Shown here: positions 40,838 to 64,000 of the stretch, piece by piece
Numbering within the stretch: the first letter of the stretch is position 1
Layout: each line of letters begins with the position of its first letter
Assembly (NCBI GenBank): GCA_964187785.1
Contig: OZ076409.1
Location: forward strand, 62,498,001 to 62,562,000
Direction: 5' to 3'
Source of the DNA: Amphiscolops sp. MND2022
Lineage: Eukaryota
Length of the DNA stretch: 64,000 nucleotides
The notes under the pieces: generated by a model
Seen by the model: only the letters and a program-made list of their open reading frames with translations
Databases searched by the model: none
Told to the model about the DNA's origin: nothing
Made by a program: the position numbers and the translations under genes

Positions 40838-43800
40838 TTAGTCATCATTTTCTTTTTCAAGAGTGAATTCTTCCGATCCGTGACTATCTGTTTCTTTATC
40901 AGGTTCTCTTCCATTCAAAACACTTCGTTTCGCAGATTTGTGGCAGCTTTCCAAATCTTTTCTTGATTCATGTTCTTCGCTATTTATAGTGACTGAAACA
41001 TTCTCATATTGCAAAGAATCTGAACTTGAAATTCTGTCTCTTTGACCCCGCGGCGAACAACCACACGAACTTGCAGGATTTGAGTTAAATGTATTGGTTG
41101 TTTCGGAGAAGGATGATGTGTCCAAAATAGCTTTCAGAGTTTGCGAGTTTGTGATTCTATGAAAAATTTTCAAATGTTGACTCAGTGAGCCTTCCATCAA
41201 AAACGCATCACACATTTTGCACAGGCTTGATATGTTATGTGACCTCAGGGGTTGCTGAGGTACTCCAGGGGACGAACAAGGCGGGGAGATATTTGAAACT
41301 TTCTGATTGGTCGAAATTCTGTTGCTGATACTTTCGCGAGAAACAATCTCAGGCGAAGTTGGCTCACTTTTGGGACTATAATCCATGGATGCCATTTCAA
41401 CGGAAACCTTGCCAGAATTCCTTGAGGTTAGCTGAGGCGGGGAATGAGATTCATAGTTGGCAACAGTTTGTCTGACCGTACAGTAATTTTGTTCATGTGC
41501 TTTCAAGGTCGTTTCGTGGATAAATTTAACATGACAACTCCTACATTGGAACTTCGCATACGGTTTGAAGTCCTGGTCGTTTTCGGTGTTGGGTGATCTT
41601 CGTTTGCGAGTTGCCAGGACTCTTTGAAGCGTTTGAGGGGACGTGGGGCGCAAAGATGCGCCAGACACAGAAGCGGAGGCTGCGGCGGCTACTGCACACT
41701 CCAAAAGACCCGCTAAAGCCGGTAGAGGTGCTGAACTTGTAGCAGAAACAGAGGGAGTCATAGTCACAGACCCACTCAAAGCTGTCCTTGTTTTGTCATC
41801 TGTGGTATTATCTGAACCCCCAATACCCCTGCTGCTATTCGCGACGAGCGAAGACTCAGCATCTCCCCCGTTTAAAGCATCATCACCTGTTGGTTTTATT
41901 GCGCAATATTTTTCCTTATGAATTTGCAGGGTATCTAGTCGGCTAAACATGATTCCACATGCGGAACATTTGTGTTTCCTGACATTTCCAACGGGCCCAG
42001 GAATTATGCCTAACCTTTGTTGAGTTTCGAAAGTTTTAGTTGCCATGACTACGTTTTCGAGGCTAGACAATTGCTGATGCACCTTCTCCAAGAGATCATC
42101 ACCTGATGAACTTTGTTGGGCTACCAAGGAAGTTAGCTCTCTGACATGGTTTTTGTTGCTCAAATTGTTTCCCCCAACAACGCTTCCTCCAGCGACCCCG
42201 TTTATTGGTCCATTTGATGCCAATGACGTTACCGGACTAATAGAGGGTTGCTTGCGCATCGGGCAATATGATTGGTTGTGGCCGTCCAGTGTTTCTTTGC
42301 ATTTGAAAGCAGCATTACATTTTTGGCATTTGAATTTTTTTGGAGGTGCCACTGCAGTTGAGGGCTGGTCTGGAAACAAAAAGAGAATGACGATATGACC
42401 AAAAGGCAACAAGTCAAACATATCTATCATAACTCATTCACTTTATCTTTAAGTTCAGAAGTTTTCAGTTTGCTAATTTTAAAAAGCATTAACTCTTGCG
42501 CAATGTGTTTTCCTAATCATATTTCTACTTTTTGAATGCTTCATCTGTATGAAACATCATGTTTATTTCAATTTTGCCGTTTTGTAATATCCAGTTCAGC
42601 ACCTAAAATTTAGAAAACTAAGGTACACTTTTATTAGTTATCCTACTAGAACTCTTAAAAGTGAAATGCATTTTCTTACTTTGAACAGCTGCTGCAGCAA
42701 GCAGAAATCTGTCGATCAAAGAGGGCAGCAAAGAAGCAGACTGCCCTGGATACAAAGAAGAGCTCAAACTACCAGTCAATACATTGGGCCCTCGATCTAT
42801 ACCCATCACTGTCTCTCTCACAGTTTCGGTATTGGCGGGTGAATTTTGGTGGGAACGTGACCTTAAAAGGTTACCCGTGTCGACTTCTTGTTCTGATGAT
42901 CTGCTGTCCTCTTCCAGTTTTGTCAATTTTCTATTCCTACACAGAAATTCTTCATTCTCATTGGCTAAAACTGCACCCCGTGAGTTATCAGCCAAAGGTG
43001 AACTTGCTTCTCGGGTCAATGAAAGGTCAACCGGGCAAGTGTTCTCGTCTTTCGCTGCCCCCAATGGTGAACGTGGAGTTGTGACGTCATAATTTATGAC
43101 GTCATTGATGTTGTTGTTGTGTAATTTTTTCGGTTCTGACACTTTGTCGTGGTTGATCATGTTCAAAGAAGTTTCATCATTCTTTTCATGCGTATTTTCC
43201 TGTGGCTGGAATTGAGCTGAAACAATCAACTTGAATTATTCAAATTACAAGTGATTGATGTTCTCTTTTAATTTCTACAAGCTTTTCCACAAAATGTAAC
43301 AAAAATGAATGACAACAAAAATAAATAAAAATGAATTATATCAATTAAACGAATTTTGCACTTGTAAATTGATATAATTTAGTTAGCAAGTGCATTAACG
43401 TTTCCCCAAGCCTAGGGCTTTTTCCGTGATTAAACATGTTTCTGATTGCTTTTCAAATCCATTTATGATGATAAAAATTAATTTATCTTTTGAAATGGCC
43501 AACGTCTATCCGTCAGTGGTGGATTCTAAAAGACATTATCGATAACATACTCAATTTTCGAAAGGATATTTTATTACTAAATTGCCGCCTCTTTGGATCT
43601 TCTCGTTTTTGCTTCTTCAAAATTTCAATTAATCAATTCTGTTACGCACAGTCCTTTTCAAGTGCCTTTTTAAAAGTGGCTTGCTTTTTAAAAATATATC
43701 GCTCGATGACTTTTCAACTATCTTGTAGGGCTCAAAGTGCGATCTTAATCATCAAGCACTGATGTACTCAGAAGTACCAGCGTTTGTAAGCTTTTGCTAA

Positions 43801-46382
43801 AAACGAAGATGCAGTTTCGTGAAAAAGAAATTAACTGCTTCTTATGTCAGTCTAGTGAATTTTCAGTGAGTATTTGGGAAAAACGTGTTGATTGAGTGCC
43901 GATTCTTCAAATATTTGGAGCTTTTTCTTCCTTGAAGTAAAAAAATTGAAATCTATTGACTGAGAGCTTTTTGCAATAACAAAATTTTTTGAAAAGGTAA
44001 TACATTTTTCATTTTAAAAATTTACCCCCGCCAAATGAAATGCGGGACCATGTCCCACCCAAGCGGCCGCGGGGGAAATGCGAAAGAAAGTTCTATTATG
44101 TCGACAAATACTATTATGTCGACAACGTTTGCGCTGGGATTTTCTATACGATTTTAGCTTGACTGGCACTACTGAAACCTGCTTTTTTCGACTAAAATGT
44201 GGGAAAAATCTTGGAAAATACTGTGAAAATTCTTAAGCATATTGCATGTGAAGAAATGAAGAAACTTTTGTTCTGGTAGTTGAGATAGATCATATAATAA
44301 CGTACTGTTCCACAAAACTTAAATTCTGACTTCAACTGTGAACCATGTTTTTTGATGAAATCTTCATTTTTAGTCGGCGCTTCATGAAGTGAAACGCGAC
44401 TATTATAGTGACTTTTTTTCAATCCACACGAACTGACCAAAATAGTTCTTCAAAAGTTCTAGGAAATATGTTTTTTTTCGAGGAAAAATTTTTTTCGAGG
44501 AAAAATCTCACAGCGCCGAAAAAACCTTAAAGGGGGCCCTTTAGTCTCGCCCGGTACTGTATGTTAGGCGGACAAACCTTTTTGGTTCAGTTGGCTACAC
44601 GAAATGGTTCAATTTGACATCATAATAATAATCAAATTTTCCTCCGTTTTTTGAGGAAATTGTCCAGTTCTGGAGGTTATTCTGGGTTCGAGTCTCCACA
44701 GTGCTCAACAACACAACAATTAGCCTTTTAGCATACTTTTTCTCAACGCATTTTCTCCACAAAGTATAAGATGAACCAAAATGGGTCAATTTTTCAGGTT
44801 TTCTGATTTTCTTGTAATTTCGTAGCTTACTGAGTACGCTCGAGCTTTAAAAGTATGCCGTTGCTGAAATACTTCAGGTGGAACTTTTCTCGCTGCTCAG
44901 CGGGCGTTTTGTTGAGCCAGTCTTTGAGTCTTTTTGCGGAGAGGCAATTCGAAAGGAAATGTCTCCGCAACAGTAAGAGACAAACTTACTTGATTGGTTG
45001 ATTCTGATTTGATCCCACGAATTCATGCATTTTTGATATTTGCCTAAAATTTGAAAATCTGTTTCGAAAGCCGCAACGAGCACAGGTTGATAAAATTTAG
45101 CCTAATCTCGGAAAAATGTGATTTTTTACTTGGACTCTTTCCTTTGATTTTAGTAATTTTCGCTGGCCTTGACGCACTTACCTTTATCGATGCATCAAAA
45201 CAATGGGATTTGTAATTATCATTTGCTGTGAACATGACGCTTTCATTTCTATCAATTTTCAATTCACCTGCAAATTACTGGGAGAGATTTTTATGAGTTT
45301 TTCTGGCACTTAATGATCAGTTGAAAATTATGCTTCTGACGACAAGCACTATTTAATTTTTAGTCGGCGCATTTTAACAAAATGAGCCCGACTATTACAG
45401 TGGCAAGTTTTTCTTCTTTTTTTCGTCAGATAACAGAATGTATGCGTAGTGGACACTTTTTACAGAACTACTAAACTACTGGACCGACAAACGGAAACGC
45501 ATCTAAGGTAATGCAAAGGGAGGGTCCCCCCTTTCATTTACTCCCTTTTTAACGTAAGATACAAAACCGGACGAGACTATAGGTCTATAATTTTTTTGAT
45601 ATTTTGCAACAAACTGGATTTTCAAAAAGTCAAAAGGGTCCCCCTTTTACAATTTTAAAAACTTTGCGCTTTTTGAGCCTTAGATATAGCGCCGACTTTA
45701 GACGTTCCCGTCTTGTTTATATTTGAGGAGTCGCTTATTTTTCCCGCTTATTACTAAATTCTGTTAATTTCAAATTGTATTTCGCTAAATTTTTCCCCAT
45801 CAAATCATGCAAGATATGTAAATTCAGGTGTTTTCCAGATGGTAAGAAAGAATTTGATGAGGAATTTTGAGTCACAAAATTCCTCTAAATAAGATTTCTA
45901 TTCACAACTTTAAAAAGAAAACGCTTTTCATTTCATATTTTAAAATGTGCAAGTTGCTTGAGATAACTCCCCCTCCCATTTTGGCGCATTTTTGGTTACT
46001 GTAAATTTCAGCCATCAATCAAATCCCCGAAACTTCGACCCCTTCCGCTAATTTGCTGAATGGTCTTCAAAAACCGGCGTAAATTGTGATGAACGTTGAC
46101 CTGAATTAAACTTACGGTCGGAGTCCAACTCTTTTTTGTAACTACTCGAAAATGACAAATCCAAAGCTCCATCTTCTCCGCTTTCATTTTCTCTGTGAAG
46201 AGAGCCACTATTGGCAGAAATGGTTTGTGGTAATTCTCTCAAAGAGTGACCTGTCCATAGTTTAGTCATATCCCAGCCCGCCCTCCCAGCTATGTGTCTC
46301 ATAAAGCTGGCTAGGTTGTTTTTTCCAATCGGGTTTCTCAGGTACCAACTTTTGGTGAAAGTATGCGGTCCTCACTAAGTTT
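40838..46382 (-). CDS. FOG/ZFPM (u-shaped)-type zinc-finger protein, 3' exons; 5' exons presumably outside the window
   Basis: Exons ~46382-46116, 43216-42680 and 42369-40838, joined in phase 1 with GTAAG donors. Three C-x2-C-x12-H-x4-C fingers (CQKC...HNQSYC, CSAC...HKEKYC, CRSC...HEQNYC), one C2H2 finger (CKMC...HLKIFH), and CtBP-type motifs PVDLS and ALDLS. Confidence 0.8.
44368..44592 (+). mobile_element. HINE family 1 fragment
   Basis: TTTTAGTCGGCGCTTCATGAAGTGAAACGCGACTATTATAGTGAC 5' end. Confidence 0.75.
45357..45717 (+). mobile_element. HINE family 1 related subfamily copy
   Basis: TTTTTAGTCGGCGC ... GCGCCGACTTTAGACGTTCCCGTCTTGTT. Confidence 0.75.
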
Positions 46383-46437
46383 CTGAATTTGAAATTGCGC
46401 TTTTTTTCAGAATTTTAGTTGAATGTGCTCACTGAAA

Positions 46438-46541
46438 AACAATAAAACTTCACGTTTGTTCAGACCTCAAGCCCATATAGAGAACACAGTAATCTCACAG
46501 TTTGAAACTTGAGGTCTGAGCAAGCGTGAAGTTTTATTGTT
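46438..46541. repeat. 34-bp inverted repeat pair (mini-MITE or hairpin)
   Basis: AACAATAAAACTTCACGTTTGTTCAGACCTCAAG ... CTTGAGGTCTGAGCAAGCGTGAAGTTTTATTGTT, 2 mismatches. Confidence 0.85.
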
Positions 46542-46579
46542 ATCAAATTATTATAACTTAATAATTTGATACGGTTTTG

Positions 46580-47394
46580 TTATTTTCCGCCCATATTTCA
46601 TATGGGAAAGGAAAATATTTAAATCAAACGGGTTTTTTTTTACAAAATTTGCCAAGAAATATTGTTTACGTAATATGAAGAAGTACATTCACAGAATTCA
46701 ACTGACATCAATTTAGTTCCATGCGATATGTATTTGTAAAGATTTTTGGACTTTTTTGGGAATGACGGAAATGACCCCATAATGACCCAAAAATGACCCC
46801 GAAAATGACAAAAATTCAAAACTTTCCCAATTTTCACCGTTTTCGTGCATTTTTTGCCATTTTTTCGATAAACATCGTCGATTAGAATGTTGAAAACGTT
46901 CAACAAGGCACGAATTCGTTGTCCAATAGTATTCTGAAGAGATACATGCGGTTTTTTAAAAGAAAAATTACCAAAAAAATGACAAAAATTCCAAATTTTT
47001 TTACTTTTAACGTTTTAATGCAATTTTTGTCATTTTTTCGATAAACGTCGTGGATTAGAATGTTGAAAACGTTCAACAAGGCACGAATTCGTTGTCCAAT
47101 AGTATTCTTCAAGGAGATAAATGCGTTTTTTCAAAAAAATTACCCCAAAAATGATTTAAAAAATTCCAAAATTTTTCGATTTTTAACGTTTTTATGCAAT
47201 TTTTGTCAAATTTTCGATAGACTTCGTGGATTAGAATGTTGAAAACGCTCAACGTGACAAGAATGGCAGGAATTCGTTGTCCAGTATGCTTTTCCGAAGA
47301 GATAATGGCTGTTTTCTAAATGAAAAATATATCAAATTCAAACCGAAAATGACAAAAAACACAAAATTTTCCAAATTTCAAAGTTTTTATGCAA
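46580..47394 (+). mobile_element. HINE family 2 copy, truncated by the Gypsy insertion
   Basis: Starts TTATTTTCCGCCCATATTTCATATGGGAAAGGAAAAT (rc of 24550-24593); tandem units stop abruptly at TTTTATGCAA|TGTAGC. Confidence 0.8.
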
Positions 47395-48129
47395 TGTAGC
47401 GATTACCTATCGAGTGCACGATTTCGAAAATTTCGATGAAAATTTCGTTCAAGGGACTATATCTCCTCTACTAAAGAGTCATATTCCGCTAGACGGCAGC
47501 GTGTCTTTATTCAAGTACCTGCCCACAGAATTGAAGAGAATTTGAGCAGAAGACTCGAGAGAGACCCCAACCGAACAAGAAGATTGCAGAAAAATACGGC
47601 CACTGTCAAAAAAAAGACTCAAATTTCTGCCAAAACGGACTGAACTTTGTTCTAACCAGTGCTTTCTTCAGCGAAGTGTTACAAGACGCTGTGATTACCA
47701 AAAATGAGTCAATTAGCTTGACCAAGCATCCGTGCTTGTGTCCCCGGCTAATTGCTGCCTCAAAAGTGCTAATTATGTAGTAATTTTCGTATTTTCTTGC
47801 TGTGACAGCTCGTGAGCTACTCTTTTCGATCTCCTGTGTAACTTCGAAGAAACTTGATTTTTCCTTTCCACCACTTGCATTTTTTAAAGGCTGTCTAAGT
47901 GTTGGTTTCGAAGAAAAAGCGTAATGCGCACTACTGATAGCAATTACAGACTGGATCAGGCCGGCGAGCACTTCACAAGAAGCGGAATCCTCCTCTGACG
48001 GGACAGTTTTTACCCGAAAGAGGCAAAATGAGCTCATGGTCATGGGCGCCTGTCCCGGGCAAATACCCATATCATGTGTTCCTCTAACTCTTATGGTTAC
48101 GGCGACAATGGTGAGAGCTTGTCGTTACA
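47395..48129 (+). repeat. 5' LTR of the Gypsy element (3' boundary 48129, possibly 48140)
   Basis: Starts TGTAGCGA at the break in the host HINE and ends TCGTTACA (7/8 terminal inverted repeat), followed by the PBS. The 3' LTR is not visible for confirmation. Confidence 0.7.
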
Positions 48130-48145
48130 TAGAGACATCATTTTT

Positions 48146-48163
48146 TGGCGACCACAGAGGGAT
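48146..48163 (+). promoter_or_regulatory. Primer-binding site, probably tRNA-Arg type
   Basis: TGGCGACCACAGAGGGAT: TGG start (complement of CCA); resembles the complement of tRNA-Arg(TCG) 3' ends (tRNA identity from recall). Confidence 0.7.
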
Positions 48164-50521
48164 CGCTTCGAAGTGCTTCCCTTAATGGTTTTAAAATAGC
48201 CGACCCTCTGGTGATTGACGCCAAGTACGACCCGACTCTGATGGAAAGAAGAGAGAAGCAGAGTTTTTCCATATTTTTACCCTGTGTGTGTTATTGAAGA
48301 CTTCAACCCCGGTGGATAAAGGTAAATCTTGTAAAAAAGCGTTGTATGTTGTGATTTTCATGCTTTTTTAGTAGTTGACAGGTAACGATCGAAATAGCCT
48401 ACCCTCTTAACGGGTCACTCATAAAATTGGTCTAGCAAGCCGCTGGGAGGCTGCTAGAAGTGTTAACAGGTGTTTTCTAGCCTTTTTCAGCTTTTTATGA
48501 CCAATGAAGTGAGTGTTGAGAAGAGGATGATCCTTGCTCAGAGGAATCTTACAATCTGCCGAAACGAGTTATACGACTCACCGATCCCATTTCCCGTACA
48601 GGCAACCTAGAGAAATGAAATTTGGTGGAGACGTACTACAAATGCTGACGTGTCTAATGGTGCAACCTGTTTGTCTCTGGCTGTTCTGGGTGATGAGCAA
48701 AAAGAACGAGAAGACACGACTCGTCAGTCCGGGTTGTATGATATTTTTGAGTCAGGTTAAAAAAATTTTTTGAGTCGCTCAAAATTTTGTGTACGACCAT
48801 TTGCCAATGTTTTTACGAGCCTTCTGCAACTAAGTGTGTGCTTTTGCACCTATTTTGTGCGAAAAAAGTGCGTTTTTTCATGTATTTTCGACGAAAAGTG
48901 CCAAATTTGGCCATTTTGAGGCGAAACACCTACATGAGCGCGAGCGCTCTTGGTGCTAGCCACGCACCTGCAGAAATTAAATAAAAGTAGCTCAGGACTC
49001 TAACGAGTTCGCAAAAAACGCGACGAAGTACTCAAAGTTGCCCGAGAAGGCACTTAGTATAAGTTTTGTGAGGAAAAAACCCCGTTTTTGAAAAACTGAA
49101 CATTTTAGCACTTTGAACTTGTGGGGGAATTTGTATGGAAGCTTTTAAACACCCCCGTATGGTTGCAATTAGGTTGGGGTACACCTGCCGGTACCCAACA
49201 ATACCCATTTTGGTAATTATAACCACTACTTCTTAAAAAAAGTTACGAGAACTGTGATTTTGAAGTTTTTCTATAGTACTCTTAAAAGAAACCCAACTTG
49301 ACTATTGACGAACACTTTTACGCTTAGAACAGCCCCAGGGCTATTGTTTTTAGTTTATTCGGTAAATTTAACGATCTACAGTAAAGACCGCATCCCAAAA
49401 TTCCTTTTCAGTGCTGAGAAAAGTAGAAAAATGCACTGAAAAACCTCCATTTTTCTAAAATCCGGACTGTCTCTGAGCTAAGGTCGGGTCATTGATTCTT
49501 GGACCTTAGCCAAAAGGTGGTTGCACTTTCATAACCACCACTAAAAATAACGCTAGTGCCGAAAATTTGGTGGACGTAACTTTCACCAAAATCGAGAAAA
49601 GTTCTCTAACATTTCAACTTCAGAGGACTGTAAAACTGCCGAAATAATCTAAAACTGAAGGACTGTCGGTGCCTTGTGTTTAACGGGCACACCTAATCGA
49701 GGGTTTACCCTAGTGCTACGAGTAGTGGGGCAACACGTAGATCCCATTTTTTCAGCCCTACCACTTTTTGAGGTGACCCTCTTAGCCAATTTGTGAAAAA
49801 AGTAGTCCAAAATTGTTTTTCTTTATGAGTGTTGTCCAAGTAAGGTCGAAACCTCAAATAAGCGTCCGCGCTTTCTTTTGATGGTTTCACCGGCATTGTA
49901 CACACTCATCGGCTGTAACCACAAAGTTTCGTATCAATCCAACCGGTACTTGATGAGAAAATAAAAAAAAAAACGTACCACTCAAAAAGTTGGGCATAGA
50001 GGGTAATTTTTCAAATTTTTCCTGAGTGATCCGAGTACCTTAATTGAAAAACGAGGTTGAATTGCAGTTCATTTCTATCATTTGTACCAGATATTACGTT
50101 GTTTTGCAAATTTTGAGCCCGCTAGCTTTTTTCAATGGAGAATAATCTTGAAGTAAGCATGAAAATTGATGTATCTTGATGACTAAGGGTACCGAACGTC
50201 CGGATCAGCCTGAATCTTGAAATAAAAACCTTAGCTTAGATTTAATTTTGCTATCGTGTAGTACACCTACCACAAGGTTAGGTGGCCAATTTTCAAGTGT
50301 TTCCGACGATTAGACGTTGCGTTCGAGGCATCTGAGTCATTTATAAAGAAATATAAAAAACTCAAAAATTGTCTAAAAACCCAATTGTTTGCGAATAAGC
50401 TATTCCGTAAGCCCCAAACGCACGGTTTCCGGCCCCACACCACGGTATCAACGCGCTGTGTAAGTTTCACGCCGGTACGACCCCTAGATCGATTTTTGAC
50501 TTTTTCGAGACGTGCGAAGTC

Positions 50522-53500
50522 ATGAAGCCCAACAGTTTGCGTAACCTTTGGATTTCTATAACGAGAACATTAAGCCGCACGAACACCCAGCGACGCTCTA
50601 ATCATTCAAAAGGGGGGAGGAAGGACACCTCGCGATGCACTGAAGCATCAAAGACACCAGACCCAACGGGGTGCGAGACAAATCTCAGTGCGATATCAGA
50701 CCTGACCTCAGACCCCAGGGAGGAAGATTGGCCAACTGATGACAGTTTCGTTATGGAACCCGATTTTTCAGACCCTATGTCAGACGACGCATCGGAGAAG
50801 TATCAGGCCAAGCCAATCGCCAGGACTACCGATGATATCGGAGGTTCAGCCGACGAAACAGGAAGTCAGGCGCACACGTCCAAATGGTTACAAGAACTCA
50901 CTAAAGTAGCCGTCACACCTTTTGGTACTGACGAAGCAGGAACATGGCCCAATTCCAACAGGACAAACGCTGAAGAAGAAGCTGAAATGAGTTGCTTGAA
51001 TGCCACTGGACAACTCAAAGCTCCCAGCATGGCCAGCGAGAGCACTGCAAACACGGCAGAGATATTGCAACAAATGTCTTATGTCGGGGGTATGAATTAT
51101 GCCAGGGCACGTCTTCAAGAAGCTACGGCCCCCCGAGCATCTGGGAAGGGTAAGCAAGTACGGCCTCCAGCCTTACTAGCACAGACCGGCACTACGGGAC
51201 CTCATGGCGACTCGCGCTCATCCTCACCTTCATCAAAAGCTGCATCTGCCCGATCCTCAGCATATCGAGCCGTACATGAAGCAGCGAAAGCGCGCAAAGC
51301 TCTGTTAGATGCCCAGATAGGCGTGAAGCAAGCTGCTTCACAACTGTCTGAGCGTAAAGCAAGGTGCGATAGAGAGCATCAGTCAATAATGGAGGAGATA
51401 GAAGCCGTACAAACTGAACTGCGAACATCAACTGAGCGACAAGCGCAAGGACATGAAATTCAGGCAGCCCGAATGGATGCCATGGGTTATCGAATGGCCG
51501 AAATAAAGGACATGGTGACCGAAAGAGAGGTGCGCATGGAAGCTCAACTGCAAGAGGTATGTTCACAGATACAAGCAATGGGCACTATGTTGAAAAATAT
51601 CCAACCTCAACCCGCACCAGTAAGTAACACTATCAAAGAGTTGCTGCAAGACACTGATGTATCACTGCCAAAACCCATGAAAAGCGTCTCCCTCAAGCCA
51701 AAAGAGAGTGTGACGATTTCAACAAACCCATCTGGCTCTAAACAACACTTGGCCAGGTACGCGCCCTTGCCACAAACTCTGGTCTCAAATGGAGAAGCTG
51801 CGTCAACATCGACGAAATTTATCCCATCCGCGGTATCAACAAAAAATGTTCCACCCACGACCAAAACTCACAAGAAAGAACCAACGTGCGAGGTGATAAC
51901 TATCGACACTTCAAGCATGGGTATCAGCGACCTGCGAGAGCCCACACGCACAAACGTGCTAACCGAAGTCACTAGCACCTTCCAAACAGCAAATGCAACT
52001 TTGGGAGAATCAGCAGCAGAATTCCAAACCGCGAACGACGAATTACCCCCGGGCAACCCATGCGCCAGCAGCACTCGACGCCGAGAAGTGACTCTCCCCG
52101 AGAACACCGATGACTCTGTCAACTCAACGCGAGGCAGCAGTATCCCGCCACCAGCCATCAGTGAAGAAGCGCCTATATCACCGGAGCAACTCAGGTTTAC
52201 CGAGGCAATATCCAAAGCCATGTCCAAGGAACTGGCGCCGCTGATTGCTAATCGAGATCAAACTAGGGTGCGCCCTACGATATACAAAGGCACTAAAGAT
52301 GGTTCTGTCGATGGATGGCTCCCAGTGATGAAGCGATTTCTAGAAAGGGTACATGCAAAATCCCCAAAGATCGACAGAGCCTGGGCTATCATCGATCACC
52401 TGGAAGGAGAGGCAAGAAATTATATAATCAACAAATCTGAACCTGAACGTGATGAACCCGACAAGGAATTCTCTCTCTTGGCCAGCAGATTTGGAACCGG
52501 TGGAAATCGCATGCACGTCAGGCAAACCTTCATGTCTCGTGTCCAACAGGAAAAAGAGGATTGGATGCAATTCTTGGACGCATTAGAAGGTCTGCGCACC
52601 CAAGGTTTCCCAGACGAGCCTATCACTACGCGTCGTTATGAAATCCTGCAACGTTTTATAGATGGTATAAATGACCCGACGCTGCGACAAGAGTTGGCCG
52701 TGGTGTACGCTGCAGAGTCATATCTGACCGAGCCACCAACTGTAGAATCCCTAAGGTTCACCACGAGACAATTACAACGGCATCGCCCAAACGCGTCAAA
52801 ACCTTACGACCCAAGGTATGCAATGAGATCGAGGCCTCACCCTTTCGTGCCAGGAAAATTGGTTCATCCAGCACCAGGCCTACCGCAAAACGTACTACCT
52901 CCAAACCAAGGACAACGAGAGGCTAAACCCCAGATGGCTCCACCAGGCCCTGCATCGGTAAAACAGGCTCCTGCACAGCAGCAACCAGCGAGAGTGATTC
53001 CCCAAGGAGCATGCTTCAACTGTGGACTACCAGGTCACTTTGCAAGGGAATGCCCAAGTCGAGACCTAGCAAGGAAACCAGCGGCTCGCGCTGCACCCGA
53101 AGAACGAGTAAACTTATGCGAGAATAATGTGGCCTCTGCATGTTCTGGCCCCGTATTCTGTGTAAATTGTGGCATGACCGAACACTCTGCATCACAGTGC
53201 CAAAATGTTCCAGTACATGAGGATTTGGCCTACAGCCTCTGGGCTGAACAGCCATCTGCTTCTCAAACAATGAGTGACAGCGAAATGGTACTCATGCTTC
53301 GCCCTGCTGAAGCCGCTCACGTGACGACGCCCCTTACCGTCACATGTGGCAAAATCCAAATCCAGACGAACCCGGAGCCAACTACTTTTGATCCCTCGGG
53401 ACGCACTATCATGTCTGTCCGATTACTATTGGCGATTGAGAGAGAAACCCGCCCAGAACTCACCATAGACGCTCTGATAGACGAGATAACCGCAAACAAG

Positions 53501-55024
53501 AATTGCCGACAATTGACCCTGCCCCAACCGGAAGAATGGCAGGTAAAAGGCGTCACTTCGACGTATCATGCCTATTCTCCGATTCCAGTCAAAGTTTGCA
53601 TAGATGGTGTTGACATGCGTTTTGGTGCCACTATCATTACTGACGCGTTTCCTCCTGGAATCTGCTTGGGACCGCAGGAGCTGCGCTGCTATAACATTGA
53701 TGCTCAAGAACCAACTGGTGAAGCGAGAATCGATGAGCTTGCGTCGCTCGTAGTTTCATTCGTGGTTCCCGATGCTGCTCCCGTGCCATTACGTGGTCTG
53801 ATAGACACTGGATCAGGAGTGTCCATCCTCACCTTCTCAGCCTACAACCGAGTCGCCGTGCGCACTGGGACACTCTTACGACCTTATGGTATTGACTTAT
53901 ATGCCGCGAATGGGAAGACGATCAAAACTTTTGGTCTAGCGGAGAAAGTCAAATTCCAATTGGGAGGCTACGATTTGGAAACTAACTTCGTGGTAGTCGA
54001 TGACGCCATGGGAGTGGAAGACTTCCTCCTGGGCAGAAACTTCCTAAGAGCTTATCAAGTCTTGGTGGATTTAACCGCGATGAAGGTCATTGTCCGAGCT
54101 CCGTCTGAACCAGTGTGGTACCATGCCCACACACAAGTAAGTAACGAATCACTCAATTCGTCGGTAGCGATTGCACAGGACGTAGTGTTGCAACCTTTTG
54201 AACGCGCAATACTGCGCGCTAAATTGCTTGTAGACAACTTAGAACCTTTCATGTTTCGGACCGTGCTAATCAATTTTCAAACACCTAACCGAATGTTAAA
54301 AAACGCCATCTTTTTAGAGGACACCGTGGCGACCGTGGGGGAGACTGGCTTCCTTTACGTCAGTTTAGGAAATCTTACCAGCAACGTGCAGCGGATTAAA
54401 AAGGGCACCCTTTTAGGAACCGCGGTACCCGTAACGATGGTTCATAAAGCCATCCCCCAAATTGTCCCCGGACAATCAAGTGAAACTCAGCAGTCAAATG
54501 CAAATTATGTTTGTAAAGTTTACGAACAGATGAACCTTGATTCTTCTTCTGAATATAGTTCTTCATCTGAATTTGAGTTTTTGTCCTCTACCGAACCGTC
54601 AGAACTAGGCTTGTCCGAGCGCGAAGTAAAAAGACGAACCGATCCGGCGTTAATGGCTCCGATACCGGGCCCGGAAGCACAACTCGACGAGGTGCGCGGT
54701 TTGTGGGGATCGACCGCCAGCGACACGCTTAGTAAACTTTTGAACGAATTTGATGATTTGTTTATGAAATTCAAAGCCGACATTGGCAAGTGTAAAATCG
54801 CTAAGCACCCGGTGGAAGTAGAGCCAGGGGCTGTACCCCACCGCGAAGGTGCAAGACGAATGTCGCCTGACAAGGCAGAACGTGCTAACCAAGAAGTTCG
54901 TGACTTGCTAGCTTTGGGAATGATACAACCTTCCTTATCCCCTTGGGCGAGTGGAATTGTTATGGTCAAAAAGAAGAGTGGTGAATTGCGATTCTGTTGT
55001 GATTTTCGGCACTTAATGAAGTGA
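50522..55024 (+). CDS. gag-pol: Gypsy Gag-protease-(dUTPase-like)-RT N-terminus
   Basis: Coiled coil, capsid-like region, zinc knuckles CFNCGLPGHFAREC (53012) and CVNCGMTEHSASQC, protease LIDTGSG (53804) and FLLGRNFL, RT start SPWASGIVMVKKKSGELRFCCDFR; 1-nt frame break at ~55010. Confidence 0.93.
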   Translation: MKPNSLRNLWISITRTLSRTNTQRRSNHSKGGRKDTSRCTEASKTPDPTGCETNLSAISDLTSDPREEDWPTDDSFVMEPDFSDPMSDDASEKYQAKPIARTTDDIGGSADETGSQAHTSKWLQELTKVAVTPFGTDEAGTWPNSNRTNAEEEAEMSCLNATGQLKAPSMASESTANTAEILQQMSYVGGMNYARARLQEATAPRASGKGKQVRPPALLAQTGTTGPHGDSRSSSPSSKAASARSSAYRAVHEAAKARKALLDAQIGVKQAASQLSERKARCDREHQSIMEEIEAVQTELRTSTERQAQGHEIQAARMDAMGYRMAEIKDMVTEREVRMEAQLQEVCSQIQAMGTMLKNIQPQPAPVSNTIKELLQDTDVSLPKPMKSVSLKPKESVTISTNPSGSKQHLARYAPLPQTLVSNGEAASTSTKFIPSAVSTKNVPPTTKTHKKEPTCEVITIDTSSMGISDLREPTRTNVLTEVTSTFQTANATLGESAAEFQTANDELPPGNPCASSTRRREVTLPENTDDSVNSTRGSSIPPPAISEEAPISPEQLRFTEAISKAMSKELAPLIANRDQTRVRPTIYKGTKDGSVDGWLPVMKRFLERVHAKSPKIDRAWAIIDHLEGEARNYIINKSEPERDEPDKEFSLLASRFGTGGNRMHVRQTFMSRVQQEKEDWMQFLDALEGLRTQGFPDEPITTRRYEILQRFIDGINDPTLRQELAVVYAAESYLTEPPTVESLRFTTRQLQRHRPNASKPYDPRYAMRSRPHPFVPGKLVHPAPGLPQNVLPPNQGQREAKPQMAPPGPASVKQAPAQQQPARVIPQGACFNCGLPGHFARECPSRDLARKPAARAAPEERVNLCENNVASACSGPVFCVNCGMTEHSASQCQNVPVHEDLAYSLWAEQPSASQTMSDSEMVLMLRPAEAAHVTTPLTVTCGKIQIQTNPEPTTFDPSGRTIMSVRLLLAIERETRPELTIDALIDEITANKNCRQLTLPQPEEWQVKGVTSTYHAYSPIPVKVCIDGVDMRFGATIITDAFPPGICLGPQELRCYNIDAQEPTGEARIDELASLVVSFVVPDAAPVPLRGLIDTGSGVSILTFSAYNRVAVRTGTLLRPYGIDLYAANGKTIKTFGLAEKVKFQLGGYDLETNFVVVDDAMGVEDFLLGRNFLRAYQVLVDLTAMKVIVRAPSEPVWYHAHTQVSNESLNSSVAIAQDVVLQPFERAILRAKLLVDNLEPFMFRTVLINFQTPNRMLKNAIFLEDTVATVGETGFLYVSLGNLTSNVQRIKKGTLLGTAVPVTMVHKAIPQIVPGQSSETQQSNANYVCKVYEQMNLDSSSEYSSSSEFEFLSSTEPSELGLSEREVKRRTDPALMAPIPGPEAQLDEVRGLWGSTASDTLSKLLNEFDDLFMKFKADIGKCKIAKHPVEVEPGAVPHREGARRMSPDKAERANQEVRDLLALGMIQPSLSPWASGIVMVKKKSGELRFCCDFRHLMK

Positions 55025-58000
55025 CTATCAAAGACGCTTATCCCTTGCCACGCATCGATGAGAGTCTATCCCGATTGGGCAAAGCCAAAATCTATACTAG
55101 TATTGACTTGGCGTGGGCATTCTGGCAAATTCCTGTCCGAAAAGCCGATCGTCAAAAGACTGCCTTCGCTTGTGAACTTGGGTTATTTGAGTGGCGGCGT
55201 ATGCCTTTTGGTATGTGTAACGCATCAGCAACATTTCAACGGGCAATAGCGCGAGCGCTACAAAGAATAGTGAACCGTGAAGGAAGTATGGTTATGGCCT
55301 ATATCGATGACATTGTGATTGCTACCGAGACCATCGAGGATCACATGGATAGACTACGCGAAGTATTCCAATGCCTGCGTGAGGCCGGGTTCAAAATGAG
55401 AGTCTCCAAGTGTGACTTCATGAAATCGGAGATCAAATATTTGGGCCGGGTCGTATCCGCAGAAGGTATCAAGCCAGATCCAAAAGCTGTCACCAAGCTG
55501 AAAGAATGGGATATCCCGCGAACCAAGACTGAATTGCAGAGTTTCTTGGGTTTTGCCAACTACTATCGGGATTTTATCCCGTGGCATGCAAAATTAGTTG
55601 CCCCCTTACACGCGATAACGGGAGGAGCCTCTTCATTTTTATGGGGGGAGGAGCAGCAGCGAGCCTTCAACAGCATCAAAGTGGCACTAATGGAAGCCAC
55701 TGCTCTGGCGCAACCTGACACTGAAGGCGAATTTGTTCTCGACACAGATGCTAGTGGTGTAGCTATATCGGGTATTCTGCACCAATGGCAAGGACCACCT
55801 GAGAGTCGCAAACTGCGACCGATTGTATTCGGAAGCAAAAAATTAACTGCTACGCAAGCAAAGTATGGAGCCCCAAATTTGGAAATGTATGCTGCATACT
55901 ATTTCATCTTGAAAAACCACAGTTATCTCTGTCCACGAAAGTTCATACTGAGGGTAGATAATCAGGCCCTATCCTGGCTAAAAACATATTCGATGGATCA
56001 GGCGATTATCGGTCGATGGATTATGGCTCTTGAAAAATATCACTTCAGTATTGAGCACCGACCCAGAACGCAACATCGAAATGCTGACGGTCTTAGCAAA
56101 CGAACAAATGATTACAAAAAACACGAAAAGCAACTAAAGGGTTTACCCGCAATTGCAGACAAATGGGATTTCCTATCACAGGAGGAATATAACAAACTCC
56201 CGCTAGCCCCATGGTTCGATGTCCACGGACGTGTGATACCAAATCACCCAGAATTGCCTGCACACTTGCAGAGGTTGGGTAGCCAAAGTTCACCCGAGAC
56301 CACAGTTGCCGTTCCCACGCGAAGGAGCGGACGAAGCAAACGAAATGCGACCATACGCGACGAAGCCATGAGAGCGCCCCTACCTACATTGCCAAAACCA
56401 GAATTGACACTGCCTGCCGAACTTTATCCAGAATATCCTGAGGATTGGTTGGAACTGACCGAGGAATATCAACGAGACTATTTACTCCCCACGCATGCTG
56501 CTAACGTACCATCAAGAACCACTTACCCATTGACGGAAAAGCAAGCAACTAGCACTGCACCAGAGCACGTGAAACAAGCCGCGTTCGTGGTAAACAGCAT
56601 ATCAATGGAACTGCATGAACATGCTAACACAGTCCATGGGTTGAAGGATCTACTACTAGCACAAAACCGTGACGTCCATATATTGGCTATCAAGAAATTG
56701 GTAATGCAAGAATCAACAGATAATGACGTCTTTCCGGAGAATGTACGTGCCTTTGCCAAAAACTACCACAAACAGAAGAAGAACCTTCTACTAATAAACA
56801 CCAACGGGATTTTGTGTGTAAAATACTCCAAAAGTCAAAGAGCTTTGCATCAACGCCCCTGCATGATAGTGATGCCACAATTGTATCAGCATGAGATACT
56901 ATTCAAGGCCCATGACGCGATGGGACATCAGGGCATCGCGAAAGTCTTGGCCAGAATTCACGAGCGCCACACTTGGCCAGGCATCCGCCGCACCATTGGA
57001 CAATACGTCAGCCAATGCATCACTTGTCAACAAGTACGCGACAAGCCTGGTGATGTACGCTTTCACTTGAAGAATATCCAAAGCGGTTATTTCAACGAGC
57101 TAGTCCAATATGACCACATGAAGATTTGTCCCTCTGATGATGGTAACACAGGGATATTGGTTATTATCGATCATTTCTCTAAACTCGCAGAAGCTGTGCC
57201 GTGCAACCACGATGAGTATGATGCAGCGACCACTTCAAAGTTGTTGTTGCAGAAGTGGTTTGCCCGCCATGGAACACCGACGAGGATGCAGTCAGACAAT
57301 GCTCCCAATTTCACCGCGGCAGTATCTGCTGAGTTTATGAAAGCAGCCCAAATGACCAAAGTAACCTCAACTGCTGGCCACCCCAGGACTCAAGGGTTGG
57401 TAGAGCGACAAAACCGAACGCTACTCACCCTACTGCGTGTATTCTGCTCTAGACGAATGCGTGACTGGGATCAGTACCTAGATGAAGTTATGGGTGCATA
57501 CAACTCCACACGTCATGCCACTACTGGATTCTCCCCGTATATGCTGACCAGAGGCATGGAAAAAGCTATACCCCTGACTTTCTTGTATCCAGAATTTGCA
57601 ACTCAGTCATTCGAATCATACGAAGCCTATGTGGAACATGTGCTGGCTCGACAACAAGAGATTCATGACTTAGTCCGTCGCAACACGCATCAAGCCCAGC
57701 AACGACAAAAATTGAAGTACGACAGAGCAATTCGTGCTAAAGCCTACGAAGTGGGCGAACCTGTTTGGGTATTCTGCCGATACATTCCTCAAAAGGGATC
57801 TCCTAAATTGATGAGAGCGTGGCGTGGTCCTCACAAGGTAGCACGAGTGCTACAAGAGGGACGTGTCTACATACTTGACACTGGTCAGAAAGTGCATTTC
57901 GAACGATTGAAACCGCATCATGGTGGTCCAACAGAATGGGCAGCTGTTCCTGCGCATAACGGCGAGGTTGCTATCATCATGGACCCTGATCCAGAACAAT

Positions 58001-58770
58001 CCCATGAGGAGGTGAGAGACGATGCTTCGCAACCTTCTTACCGTGCAGAGGAACCAATTTCAGAAGCCAGTAATGCCTCTTTGCCTTCTCGACAAAGACA
58101 TTGGATGGACACACGGTTACGCACACACATGCGCGCAGGTGGCAGCCGCCTACACTATCAACAATTTGGCTACTCTTCGACTGAGTCTGACGATGAACCT
58201 TCTGATGTACTCCTATCGAGTGTTCAGGCCAGTCCTGATGAAAGTGTTATCTTGTCATCACATGTAGATGAACCTGCGCCTACTCCCGAAATGCCAATAT
58301 CACCACTACCTGCTATGGAGGCTCTGTTCTCAGAGAATGAAGCAGTACCCGACGCATTGGACATCACCCCGGATCCTACTATCCACGTACCCACCAAAAG
58401 TGCCGCCACCTCTTTGACCGGTACATCCGCCCCATTATTGACAAATCCATCTCTTACGGATATGTTGAGTAACTTTCCCATTTGGCCCCTAATCGATGAC
58501 AATGTTCTCAACCCAACCCTAGACGACAACGGTGCTGAAATACCAACAACCAATAACGAAAAGGGATCGATCCCCCTGCGACAGTTCCCACCAACAACAA
58601 TGCAGCTACTACCACGAAACTCTCCAATGCTCCTAGAGGGCGTGGACCCCGGGGACGTCCGCCAGGCAGAGCGAGGCCGCGAGCCTCGCTGCCACGTGGT
58701 CACCAACGGAGAGGTGCTATTAGAGGCGCTCGCAAAAGAGGCCGTCCCAGAGGTAGACCTCCTCGTATAA
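55021..58770 (+). CDS. pol: Gypsy Pol: RT, RNase H, integrase
   Basis: DAYPLPRID, MPFGMCNA, YIDD (55300), LDTDAS, VDNQAL, H-x4-H...CITC zinc finger, QYD/SDN/VER catalytic DDE, WRGPHKV (GPY/F). Confidence 0.95.
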   Translation: MTIKDAYPLPRIDESLSRLGKAKIYTSIDLAWAFWQIPVRKADRQKTAFACELGLFEWRRMPFGMCNASATFQRAIARALQRIVNREGSMVMAYIDDIVIATETIEDHMDRLREVFQCLREAGFKMRVSKCDFMKSEIKYLGRVVSAEGIKPDPKAVTKLKEWDIPRTKTELQSFLGFANYYRDFIPWHAKLVAPLHAITGGASSFLWGEEQQRAFNSIKVALMEATALAQPDTEGEFVLDTDASGVAISGILHQWQGPPESRKLRPIVFGSKKLTATQAKYGAPNLEMYAAYYFILKNHSYLCPRKFILRVDNQALSWLKTYSMDQAIIGRWIMALEKYHFSIEHRPRTQHRNADGLSKRTNDYKKHEKQLKGLPAIADKWDFLSQEEYNKLPLAPWFDVHGRVIPNHPELPAHLQRLGSQSSPETTVAVPTRRSGRSKRNATIRDEAMRAPLPTLPKPELTLPAELYPEYPEDWLELTEEYQRDYLLPTHAANVPSRTTYPLTEKQATSTAPEHVKQAAFVVNSISMELHEHANTVHGLKDLLLAQNRDVHILAIKKLVMQESTDNDVFPENVRAFAKNYHKQKKNLLLINTNGILCVKYSKSQRALHQRPCMIVMPQLYQHEILFKAHDAMGHQGIAKVLARIHERHTWPGIRRTIGQYVSQCITCQQVRDKPGDVRFHLKNIQSGYFNELVQYDHMKICPSDDGNTGILVIIDHFSKLAEAVPCNHDEYDAATTSKLLLQKWFARHGTPTRMQSDNAPNFTAAVSAEFMKAAQMTKVTSTAGHPRTQGLVERQNRTLLTLLRVFCSRRMRDWDQYLDEVMGAYNSTRHATTGFSPYMLTRGMEKAIPLTFLYPEFATQSFESYEAYVEHVLARQQEIHDLVRRNTHQAQQRQKLKYDRAIRAKAYEVGEPVWVFCRYIPQKGSPKLMRAWRGPHKVARVLQEGRVYILDTGQKVHFERLKPHHGGPTEWAAVPAHNGEVAIIMDPDPEQSHEEVRDDASQPSYRAEEPISEASNASLPSRQRHWMDTRLRTHMRAGGSRLHYQQFGYSSTESDDEPSDVLLSSVQASPDESVILSSHVDEPAPTPEMPISPLPAMEALFSENEAVPDALDITPDPTIHVPTKSAATSLTGTSAPLLTNPSLTDMLSNFPIWPLIDDNVLNPTLDDNGAEIPTTNNEKGSIPLRQFPPTTMQLLPRNSPMLLEGVDPGDVRQAERGREPRCHVVTNGEVLLEALAKEAVPEVDLLV

Positions 58771-60287
58771 CGCACGCCAGACCTAACACTCCTACCCGTG
58801 TTCGTAGCACTCCATCTATGGACACTGACTCTTCTGCCCCTAGCGCGGCGGTTACCTCAGACCAAGCAGCACCGCCAGAATCAACCAACGCCCGTTATGG
58901 ACTGCGACACAATCGTATTCCCAGATATCGTTGCGGAACATGTGGCCTACGAGACTGCGAATGTAACTACATGGTCCACGCGGGCTTCCCAATCAAACCC
59001 CAGGGAGTCCTGCTAGCACGTGAACAGGAAAAATCGCTTCCAAGCGGAACGGTTGACCGTTTGGTTATTCGGGCCGAGAAGACTTATACTGGGCTACAAC
59101 GCAGCGACACTCCATATCCCGTGGACTATATCCTATCCAAAATGAAAGATTCTACGATAGCAAAGGCCCCGTGCCCAAGGTTCAAGGAGTGGACCTATGA
59201 TCTTGTTGGTTTGGAGTTCACCTTACCCATCACTGTTCCCCCTTTGCCTACAAATATTGCCTTTGGTCCTTTCAACTACGAGCGAGAGCCTATCCAAATG
59301 ATACGCTGTATTCCTGCTGACCTCTTGTATGACAAATACAACGTCACCGCAAAACCAGGAGACGTTTATCAGCCTACAAGCAACTGGTGGCTACTAGTTA
59401 CGGCCAAACAAACATCCGACCTGGTTCATCCCACTAACTTGAACACCTGTCTGGAGAGTTTGCGGACGATGGCCTCTCCTGATAGAATCACTTGTTTCCA
59501 CACCATAGACCTATATCGTGGTAAAATTAAGTTTGAATGGTGGCTGGAACTTATTATAGCGGTCTTATCGAATTTTTCACGAATCAGATTCCTGGACGAA
59601 TGGACACACTCATTTCCTAGTCCTGTATCGCTCCAATCGGCCCTGCACGCACTGGATACATGGTCCAGGGCTAATATTGATAATCAATCATTGCCGCGAT
59701 CTGTGTGGCAAGACTTGGGCGCAATCAAAGGCCTCCTCCCGAATACATGTAACGATGCTCTCTCCAAAGACCCCGGACGAGAGTTAGTGTACCATGGAGC
59801 CGTGAGACCTCAATTGGTTGACTATGTGCAGTATGCCAATACGGACTTCCTGCAGACTCCCCATCACATTGTTTTATGTTGTCCCGCAAATCTGGAAACT
59901 AGTTCTGCCGCTCTTCGTTACGTCATTCGTGAGCATGGTGCAGATGCAATCTTTCAACTTCGACCGGAGGTTGGCAATATTGTAACGCTACCCACAACTT
60001 TGATAGACGGCCATCCTCAGACTATCCACCTTTTAATCACACGAGCTACACCTCGCTGCCCTATGCTCGCTGATATTCTCTTTGGATGTCTTGATCATTT
60101 GAAAACGTTACTCGAGCGCTTGGAGGCGATAGAAGTACACTTTGCCATCATTGATCCTGAGCGCCCAATACGTAATCTTTTCGATTTTTATACCTGTTTG
60201 ATGGACGTATTCGCCGATACCCCCCTGACCGTCGTTCTTCACGATCGCGTTTACGTATCTATTGCAAGCGTCACTAGCTTTCCGTAA
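58557..60287 (+). CDS. Probable Pol C-terminal extension (-1 frame): AT-hooks, Cys cluster and two degenerate TARG1/Poa1p-like macro domains
   Basis: The frame of track ORF 58818-60287 is open from 58557 and reads ...PRGRPPGR...RKRGRPRGRPPR...CGTCGLRDCEC...IRCIPADL...WLLVTAKQ...CLESLR...; HHIVLCCPANL...VGNIVTL...IHLLITR...CLDHLK...LMDVF. Confidence 0.75.
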   Translation, partial: RKGIDPPATVPTNNNAATTTKLSNAPRGRGPRGRPPGRARPRASLPRGHQRRGAIRGARKRGRPRGRPPRITHARPNTPTRVRSTPSMDTDSSAPSAAVTSDQAAPPESTNARYGLRHNRIPRYRCGTCGLRDCECNYMVHAGFPIKPQGVLLAREQEKSLPSGTVDRLVIRAEKTYTGLQRSDTPYPVDYILSKMKDSTIAKAPCPRFKEWTYDLVGLEFTLPITVPPLPTNIAFGPFNYEREPIQMIRCIPADLLYDKYNVTAKPGDVYQPTSNWWLLVTAKQTSDLVHPTNLNTCLESLRTMASPDRITCFHTIDLYRGKIKFEWWLELIIAVLSNFSRIRFLDEWTHSFPSPVSLQSALHALDTWSRANIDNQSLPRSVWQDLGAIKGLLPNTCNDALSKDPGRELVYHGAVRPQLVDYVQYANTDFLQTPHHIVLCCPANLETSSAALRYVIREHGADAIFQLRPEVGNIVTLPTTLIDGHPQTIHLLITRATPRCPMLADILFGCLDHLKTLLERLEAIEVHFAIIDPERPIRNLFDFYTCLMDVFADTPLTVVLHDRVYVSIASVTSFP

Positions 60288-60510
60288 AGCTTTTGTTTTT
60301 CCGCCTTTTTTTTGTTTTTGTTTTTTATCCGCTCGATTAAGTTTAGTGAGTCGACACGGAGTTTATGTGAAACTGTTACGTTACCTTTTTCTTTAATGTT
60401 AGTGTGTGACATTATATTACTTTCCCTGATATTACCCTTAAAATGACCTATGGTGTTGCCCAACTATCAAGTGTGCTACAATCGACCTGCACTCTTTCAG
60501 AATTGTCGTC

Positions 60511-63500: not shown

Positions 63501-64000
63501 GGATTATCCCGCTCACCTGGAGCGCATGACAACTTCATTATATCACTGGATATATTGCAGTCTGGTCTTTGCCTCGGGACTTTTCGTGGGGGTGGATAAG
63601 CACCAACCATTATATGACGGACGTCAGCTAGTGACCGAGGTAGCCGGATTTTTGACACCTAACCAGCTGGCAGATTTCACTTTGGCTGAAGTCGAAGATC
63701 TCGTACCGGTGTTAGCACCCGTGCTAACTCCGATATTTGGCCCAACCGGGATACTTCGCTATCCCACCAAGCCTCTGCGACTGGCCTCGGAGACACTAAC
63801 AGTATCCATCCTGACTTATCTGAAGAACGTGAAACCGCACAACTATCAACAGATGCTTGAACGTGGGCTGTTTCTGCTAGTACCCCGCATGTATACCACC
63901 ATAAAGAATGAGACGCAGCAAGACGAAAACCTGGCCGGTATTCTCAAAGCCCGAACAAAGAAGGCGTGCCCTTTACCTCGCGAATACGGCCCGGTGAATT
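60511..64000 (+). CDS. Additional Gypsy ORF of >=1163 aa, open to the window end: Pro/Ser-rich N-half, SGNH-like fold, HTH-like motif
   Basis: Manual translation from ATG 60511 (MNQDNDRSNNVPPR...) shows no stop through 64000; absent from the track because it has no stop. Preceded by acceptor-like CACTCTTTCAG (60490-60500). Confidence 0.9.
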   Translation, partial: MNQDNDRSNNVPPRSTDNSPALGQRVYDTARVQRTPQIAFIRDRLDQGLSPATVAGVAAIIAQMESQLQAPMLTISITSGFPGFQRSMTYQDGVWHGHDLTHHFTDDRAAISYSPANGGVHQTRPLQIPSCPPPPPPPPPASTSQAVVRARTPAPTVPHLPNQSMAEQAVISALQAVAANPNYDDFMRSMEQCWPELRRIALPTVTIRNDNVTSTETRQGVITIPHINPQSEQPGHSRTVTVERSRSPSRSSQKGGGESRPASRKRNDPSPTKKTQQPLTARDSPSSKPPPDKKISNEKATTSKAPDQTKSKVSEACVLPSPQSQPDVTGEQQGLPQPPSTQSTTRESLAQRATPKPSTSRQPQTEQTVGYQGTPESQRTVKDIMGDYPGLKVTNSGPTGTPLRKQAIQHPTKRTFTKQPTYLSPMQNTKGTLVTKDSRRIWESAVIVSPEWLFEKNMCPPNDEEHAKLKKANVPVFMNRPIRPDHTPTNEPPWLGKAMNMLPNVEENYLDALNIDLRGQFADRYFLNAGETFEINPRYARDLEAQLPMPKERLQRARFALLIDSTFLKNVPIDNVLSDVMVFTLPLSRIPEMAEVLVTMFDPEMTGTFKEPPPRRVIISNVFDHMACEGLMAQIANVEIINPSPAQRTTVRNAALNMARAMEKAQNILKDKLKVPALFVTPPGFCQWPPALQRFIYMVTEVCKCREIDFAICAPNMRIGSNDFRPSWLSYMGYIASVSKVLQSVEKTGNAQLTIDDAIYFDHGTRMGLLVFNNDGERRVPEPSTAECEAIRLNNWIERARSSGGKTCIKTDLAEVTAIMSKVPSDREVERAIPRVQFAKDLTIDQLSVGMKYIAAKLTSETQAEIQAFSSTYDAWYQRLQTTTVADIAKELGMSTDQFAICLGLGWSPDVIRVEFDLDENWLIEISKIIGTMQVNELFALMLTFGQKRFVAGPMMILTDLVTECNLEWLFSYLVIARGNISGLTALAKLLQRKDAQDYPAHLERMTTSLYHWIYCSLVFASGLFVGVDKHQPLYDGRQLVTEVAGFLTPNQLADFTLAEVEDLVPVLAPVLTPIFGPTGILRYPTKPLRLASETLTVSILTYLKNVKPHNYQQMLERGLFLLVPRMYTTIKNETQQDENLAGILKARTKKACPLPREYGPVN

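Follow-up and report, generated by a model that had tools for sequence, protein, structure and literature searches.

The stretch of DNA analysed here (the window) comprises 64,000 nucleotides of contig OZ076409.1 of Amphiscolops sp. MND2022, positions 62,498,001 to 62,562,000. On its plus strand a multi-exon gene spans 10277-33400, with an Lsm-like frame at 10277; this gene looks like an ataxin-2 candidate. Membrane-protein-like frames occur inside this span at 16439-16801 and 17138-17518, also on the plus strand. The minus strand carries the last three of six predicted exons of another gene, labeled C, D and E. Exons Z, A and B all lie beyond the window.

Exon C (46348-46116) is the fourth of the six. 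Minus strand 46350-46237 reads SWYLRNPIGKNNLASFMRHIAGRAGWDMTKLWTGHSLR, that is SWYLRNP...GHSLR, and is followed by a 40-residue tail with GALDLS. The 5' part of the exon (46237-46348) has the Crypton pattern WY..PIG.N..HSLR and includes the HxxR box at 46248-46237. The 3' part (46116-46236) encodes the tail, which is not Crypton sequence, with ALDLS at 46167-46153 and a donor GT at 46115. The first-pass annotation had described the WY...HSLR sequence, the GALDLS and the GTAAGT donor at 46115, and all three are found on the minus strand as it claimed. It also gave the exon an extent of 46382-46116, with an acceptor at 46383 and a 1-nt frameshift near 46358, and this part has to be revised. A frameshift or homopolymer error is unnecessary because a phase-2 acceptor exists at AG 46350-46349, which starts the exon at 46348; the error at 46358 is rejected on this ground. 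The donor of exon B is also phase 2, and the join of B to C (acceptor 46349/46348) reads ...NFHTG-S|WYLRNP, as in uninterrupted Crypton frames. The GTAAGT at 46115 is the sole perfect one among 4 candidate donors listed 3' of HSLR. Its phase, 1, is also that of the acceptor of the PVDLS exon (exon D) at 43216; exon D in turn is predicted to splice in phase to the finger exon at 42369-40838, in agreement with the earlier claim.

Used as a protein query, the exon C fragment has 12 matches across the 1.07-Gb genome, one of them to itself. The best of the 11 non-self matches have E values of 3.6e-11 to 1.6e-10, and Crypton open frames are among them, a likeness beyond chance. The Pfam check proposed for the exon was negative, as the fragment by itself matches no Pfam family, DUF3504 included. 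A DNA query with the fragment returns nothing beyond the fragment itself, a local hairpin and a stretch of 90 bases on C11 at 74%; the exon is single copy at the DNA level and is no multicopy free Crypton fragment. That Crypton similarity stops at HSLR also proved correct: the tail scores no better than shuffles against the C-termini of six free Cryptons (p 0.46-0.93). The same comparison shows no trace of the Crypton helices that follow HxxR, and lends no support to the idea that the tail is a decayed Crypton C-terminus in which the Tyr survives.

A DUF3504 search of the genome gives 24 matches, one of them 3 kb past the window end on the same strand as exon C. Exon B (G000:C1:62565092-62565374) contains the first Arg box, FSLRSR, and scores 31.2 bits against DUF3504 (PF12012), above the curated cut-off of 29.7 bits. 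Exon A (G000:C1:62565594-62565929) encodes the core-binding part; its matches to QRICH1 (E 1.9e-4) and DUF3504 (E 0.024) are below cut-off. Exon Z (G000:C1:62591124-62591331), about 25 kb upstream of exon A, has a predicted ATG and a GC donor, and was detected with a profile built from five Crypton N-termini and run on 2391 pieces (E 7e-6; next best 0.06). A and B, like Z, are on the same strand as exon C. An acceptor for exon A 16 bases farther upstream, together with a small upstream exon, was given up when exon Z came to light; the Crypton alignment agrees with the phase-1 acceptor. A further exon upstream of exon Z is possible.

Joined in the order Z-A-B-C-D-E, the six predicted exons extend over 52 kb and give 1042 codons with no stop, through four GT-AG introns and one GC-AG intron. 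The model runs from a CryptonA tyrosine-recombinase (DUF3504) domain, complete from its own ATG to HxxR, through ALDLS and PVDLS to three CCHC fingers and one C2H2 finger. Each of the three joins within the Crypton part gives back the sequence that intronless Crypton frames of the same genome have without interruption. The interpretation first offered for exon C, domestication of a Crypton domain and its fusion to a FOG-like corepressor, is still the best reading, with the correction that a whole domain of 312 residues in four exons is present. All splices of this model are predicted from sequence, above all 46116>43216.

Exon D (42680-43216) encodes PVDLS at 43034-43020 and an RFLL.A.AV segment common to acoel FOG orthologs. 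Exon E (40838-42369) encodes CCHC fingers from 42328, 41968 and 41545 and a C2H2 finger near 41221, and ends in the stop codon. A Drosophila U-shaped-like protein (P0004) used as query has 12 matches in the genome, of which exon E is the best (E 1.5e-4, against 0.01 for the next), and the best match holds in both directions between exon E and U-shaped/ZFPM. Exon E as query retrieves 66 library proteins. The FOG finger family PF25445 is present in 30 of the best 35, which were scanned for domains, and DUF3504 in none of those 35; in this the model, with its recombinase-derived N-terminus, differs from FOG, ZFPM and U-shaped. The closest named matches come from RefSeq, one from Symsagittifera roscoffensis (470 aa) and one from Convolutriloba macropyga (492 aa), which would place the animal among the acoels; another relative is 69% identical. 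These two acoel orthologs share the PVDLS of exon D, an RLLL-type segment and all four fingers. Exon E is below the PF25445 cut-off, which the C. macropyga ortholog (P0009) passes at 27.7 vs 27. In a genome search with PF25445 none of 26 matches is above cut-off, and the exon E locus is absent among the 26. The three CX2CX12HX4C fingers end in YC, like those of FOG, ZFPM and U-shaped, which also have xDLS motifs. On a FOG-finger profile, which is partly circular because it was built from matches to exon E, finger 2 scores 31.3 bits, finger 1 13.0 and finger 3 11.9; the best ordinary C2H2 control scores 12.7, so that only finger 2 is clearly above it. Judged by its sequence, the gene of exons D and E is very likely the FOG/U-shaped ortholog itself. 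FOG fingers bind the N-finger of GATA factors, and a two-finger GATA locus is present on C9. The acoel model differs from FOG, ZFPM and U-shaped in having only three CCHC fingers, no PR domain in a Pfam-family search of the exons, and no RRK[QP] in its first 60 residues. This MSRRKQ-type sequence, which we take to be the N-terminal NuRD motif of vertebrate FOG, is missing from the first 60 residues of the two acoel orthologs too.

The fusion looks lineage-specific because the annotated orthologs of these two acoels have no Crypton domain. Both start with M..LDLS followed by PVDLS, the order found in exons C and D. No fused relative was found among proteins of 890-2540 residues (a weak test) or in two metagenome scans; a protein query with the Crypton domain returned only the protein itself, and one with exon C nothing but an identical frame of 84 residues. 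The 40-residue tail of exon C is likely the old first coding exon of FOG. The chance of an LDLS in the tail is 0.012-0.020 by shuffling, and no other xDL[ST] occurs in the three minus frames of 42600-47400. The significance is confined to the four-letter motif, as alignment of the whole tail to the acoel FOG N-termini gives p 0.15 and 0.54 (combined 0.24). Two C. macropyga models diverge 15 residues after LDLS, and this point would lie near the intron of exon C, 16 residues after LDLS. ALDLS and VLDLS are tested CtBP sites in EBNA3A, according to passages of PMC2883600. ALDLS and PVDLS are the predicted CtBP-binding motifs of the fused model.

The absence of the Crypton domain from the annotated orthologs would also fit two adjoining genes, a domesticated, stand-alone Crypton gene (Z-A-B-C) with its stop near 46050 and a separate FOG gene starting from an alternative-frame ATG in exon C or from 43160 in exon D. 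A stand-alone Crypton protein is possible because reading through exon C meets a stop 22 codons past the donor, and C10 carries an intronless stand-alone Crypton-derived frame that lacks HxxR. An alternative-frame ATG (46187 or 46172) combined with an acceptor at 43205, which has a stronger pyrimidine tract than 43216, gives a long frame encoding a Crypton-free FOG of 704-709 residues. Against two genes stand the perfect donor of exon C in matching phase and the LDLS that opens both orthologs, which is encoded only in the Crypton frame; the upstream in-frame ATGs of exon C (46302, 46269) are Crypton codons. Two separate genes are on balance improbable, and the fused gene remains the preferred reading.

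Several features distinguish the Crypton part of the predicted fused gene from mobile copies. Exons A-B are, like exon C, single copy as DNA, although the copy search ignores very common words and its count is a lower bound. Identity between the domain and those Crypton copies of the genome that are closer to it is 38-46%, and synonymous sites are saturated against all seven relatives compared. Stops interrupt 9 of the 24 DUF3504 matches of the genome and further copies are frameshifted. Two frameshifted free copies, about 10% apart, show pS 0.10 and pN 0.09, as under neutral decay. If indels occur at an assumed 1/10 of the substitution rate, 5% neutral change would leave a 939-base frame open in about 4 in 1000 cases, a calculation that serves as an argument and not as a test of selection. 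The intact copy on C3 has R, HxxR, H and Y. The domain of exons Z-C retains only the first R and HxxR of the R-H-R-Y tetrad, the segment with the second His and the Tyr having been replaced. An active CryptonA transposon would have a complete catalytic set and several similar copies, neither of which is present. A structural model of the free C3 copy (mean pLDDT 62), a paralog 38% identical and not the spliced protein, has QRICH1 in Zincore and Cre as its top structural matches; the three helices after HxxR in this model are the part replaced in the fused gene. The Crypton domain is truncated and likely inactive. Recombination is unlikely because it has lost the helices that carry the catalytic His and Tyr; the domain may still bind DNA.

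A free or recent Crypton insertion beside FOG, with an in-phase donor by chance and no host function, would account for residue conservation as a legacy of transposon life, in a genome with as many as 24 Crypton matches. Free copies lack the three introns seen here and are broken where this frame is intact, the catalytic end is absent, and there is no sibling at the DNA level. Such an insertion is hardly credible beside domestication.

Two of the introns are long (25 and 21 kb) and carry very young LTR elements, which could shorten the transcript. The intron between exons B and C has a whole length of 20,743 nt, of which 46349-64000 (minus strand) falls in the window, and consists mostly of a young LTR retroelement insertion. 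A 736-nt repeat pair, 99.86% identical and with one copy at 47394-48129, bounds this 19-kb insertion, and gag/pol-like frames are found on the plus strand at 50411-58767 and 60442-63999. The element inserted into a decayed tandem repeat of about 173 bases (window 46790-47393), and a 34-nt inverted repeat (46438-46541) precedes the acceptor of exon C by about 90 nt. The other long intron contains a young LTR retroelement at G000:C1:62575179-62590782, whose repeat pair is 99.54% identical.

Given the near-identical repeats around the 19-kb insertion, transcription may now begin within the B-C intron, from the old FOG promoter or the young LTR, so that only a short protein is made from 46302 or 46269 and Z-A-B are a recently uncoupled relic. 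These in-frame ATGs give 751 and 740 residues, and KCTD1 has comparable long and short forms, as described in passages of PMC3212892. The frames and splice sites of Z, A and B are intact, though, and the LTR insertion is young and intronic. A short form alone seems distinctly unlikely, and it would change the present use of the fusion and leave the fusion itself standing.

We favor, with a probability of roughly two in three, a gene whose six predicted exons encode a FOG (U-shaped) cofactor that bears at its N-terminus a Crypton recombinase domain, truncated and likely inactive. The fusion could have arisen when the coding region of a Crypton landed at the first coding exon of FOG; alternatively, what landed there was a copied 5' part of the sister Crypton-KCTD gene described below. 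Crypton and FOG would then have been joined within one exon with loss of the helices bearing the second His and Tyr, and the Crypton start would have replaced FOG's own in-frame ATG. Three introns would have been gained later and filled with LTR elements. In the protein, the Crypton domain may clamp DNA without cutting it, or act as a protein scaffold like the DUF3504 of QRICH1 in Zincore. Finger 2, and perhaps fingers 1 and 3, would bind the GATA N-finger, and ALDLS and PVDLS would recruit CtBP. The net result would be a GATA corepressor with an extra DNA or cofactor contact, perhaps accompanied by a short isoform starting in exon C.

The closest relative of the fused domain is encoded on C11, where a minus-strand model (L050, L051; G000:C11:41063214-41079817; 12 exons, 886 codons open, no start found) is 51% identical to it over 267 positions. 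This model consists of a Crypton domain, PVDLT, an AT-hook-like RGRPRG, and a KCTD1/15-type BTB with its C-terminal part, for which KCTD1 and KCTD15 are the best matches among solved structures. It has the same design as vertebrate KCTD1b, with the Crypton domain in frame before the BTB. Two trees group the C1 and C11 domains with support values of 91/94 and 89/96, short of the tool's star. The first used 9 of 13 aligned rows, leaving out one near-identical unit and three partial copies; the second used 8 of 13, with the long C5 row also left out. Placement of the C1 domain with the L016/L029 family is rejected (p-AU 0.017), this group having been chosen after the first tree was seen. None of three intron positions is common to the C1 and C11 Crypton parts. 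Five introns of the C11 Crypton part (G000:C11:41073265-41079817, minus) need donors GG, GC, GA, GG and GC and have AG-containing repeats at their junctions, which suggests that they are non-canonical and possibly element-made. One of the C11 Crypton exons has a second, near-identical copy 44 kb upstream (G000:C11:41118300-41118491, minus). A tentative and rather speculative extension is that the acoel lineage gave its only FOG a recombinase-derived DNA clamp, so that a cofactor which ordinarily rides on GATA became a repressor able to read old Crypton sites on its own, and that one Crypton lineage was captured twice, by FOG and by KCTD1/15, independently repeating the KCTD1b fusion.

The domesticated Crypton genes listed by Kojima and Jurka are KCTD1, KIAA1958, ZMYM2-4, QRICH1 and WOC, and DNA or cofactor binding is proposed there for DUF3504 (passages of PMC3212892). 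A Crypton-FOG fusion is not reported in the literature searched, including most of the text of PMC3212892, whose accession tables could list further DUF3504 genes. KCTD1 isoform b, a fusion placed in jawed vertebrates, resembles the gene described here in having a CryptonA-derived DUF3504 N-terminal to an existing corepressor, with the catalytic Tyr lost, and a shorter Crypton-free form of it is known (PMC3212892, in part). It differs in that its host part is a BTB protein and not FOG and its domain is a single exon, compared with three introns here; in the acoel gene the join is inside an exon and apparently restricted to one acoel lineage. WOC, ZMYM2-4, QRICH1 and KIAA1958 are comparable as nuclear regulators with a domesticated DUF3504 (PMC3212892, in part), but there the domain is ancient, and C-terminal in QRICH1, whereas the acoel domain is N-terminal and retains the first Arg and HxxR. 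Among solved structures QRICH1 (PDB 9hjt, whose title is Zincore with ZFP91 on DNA) matches best in both sequence and fold, the fold match coming from the free paralog model. Its DUF3504 binds SEPHS1, according to part of 10.64898/2026.10.26.761783. KRABINER-type host-transposase fusions (10.1101/2020.05.07.082677, in part) similarly combine a transposon DNA-binding module with a host repressor module; they involve transposases captured mostly via alternative splicing, whereas here the start codon comes from a tyrosine recombinase, and the join lies within an exon.

What is probably new is a lineage-specific Crypton domestication with a FOG cofactor as partner. The Crypton domestications known from animals date back hundreds of millions of years, and most of their source elements have disappeared. 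The capture steps (truncation after HxxR, intron gain and start-codon takeover) and DUF3504 function are testable in this acoel because transposon relatives and unfused acoel orthologs are at hand. The fusion touches the conserved developmental switch GATA-FOG-CtBP, and the hybrid repressor, which is likely made, would have its own grip on DNA. The sister KCTD fusion raises the question of whether KCTD1b has two separate origins or one that is much older than has been reported.

Other Crypton frames of the genome are diverse. On C13, a 744-codon frame (L028:598-2829, plus) contains a Crypton domain without HxxR flanked by PLDLA and PLDLS, and is likely a further domesticated Crypton corepressor. 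The intronless 382-codon frame on C10 (L009:1297-2442, minus), with HxxR replaced, is possibly a stand-alone domesticated gene. A divergent DUF3504 frame with a long tree branch (L025, G000:C5:38681920-38685345) presumably resembles the C-terminus of QRICH1/ZMYM. On C3, a 1055-codon frame (L058:4272-7439) comprises three tandem, near-identical 993-base Crypton recombinase units, the last of which is the only one with Tyr at the catalytic position.
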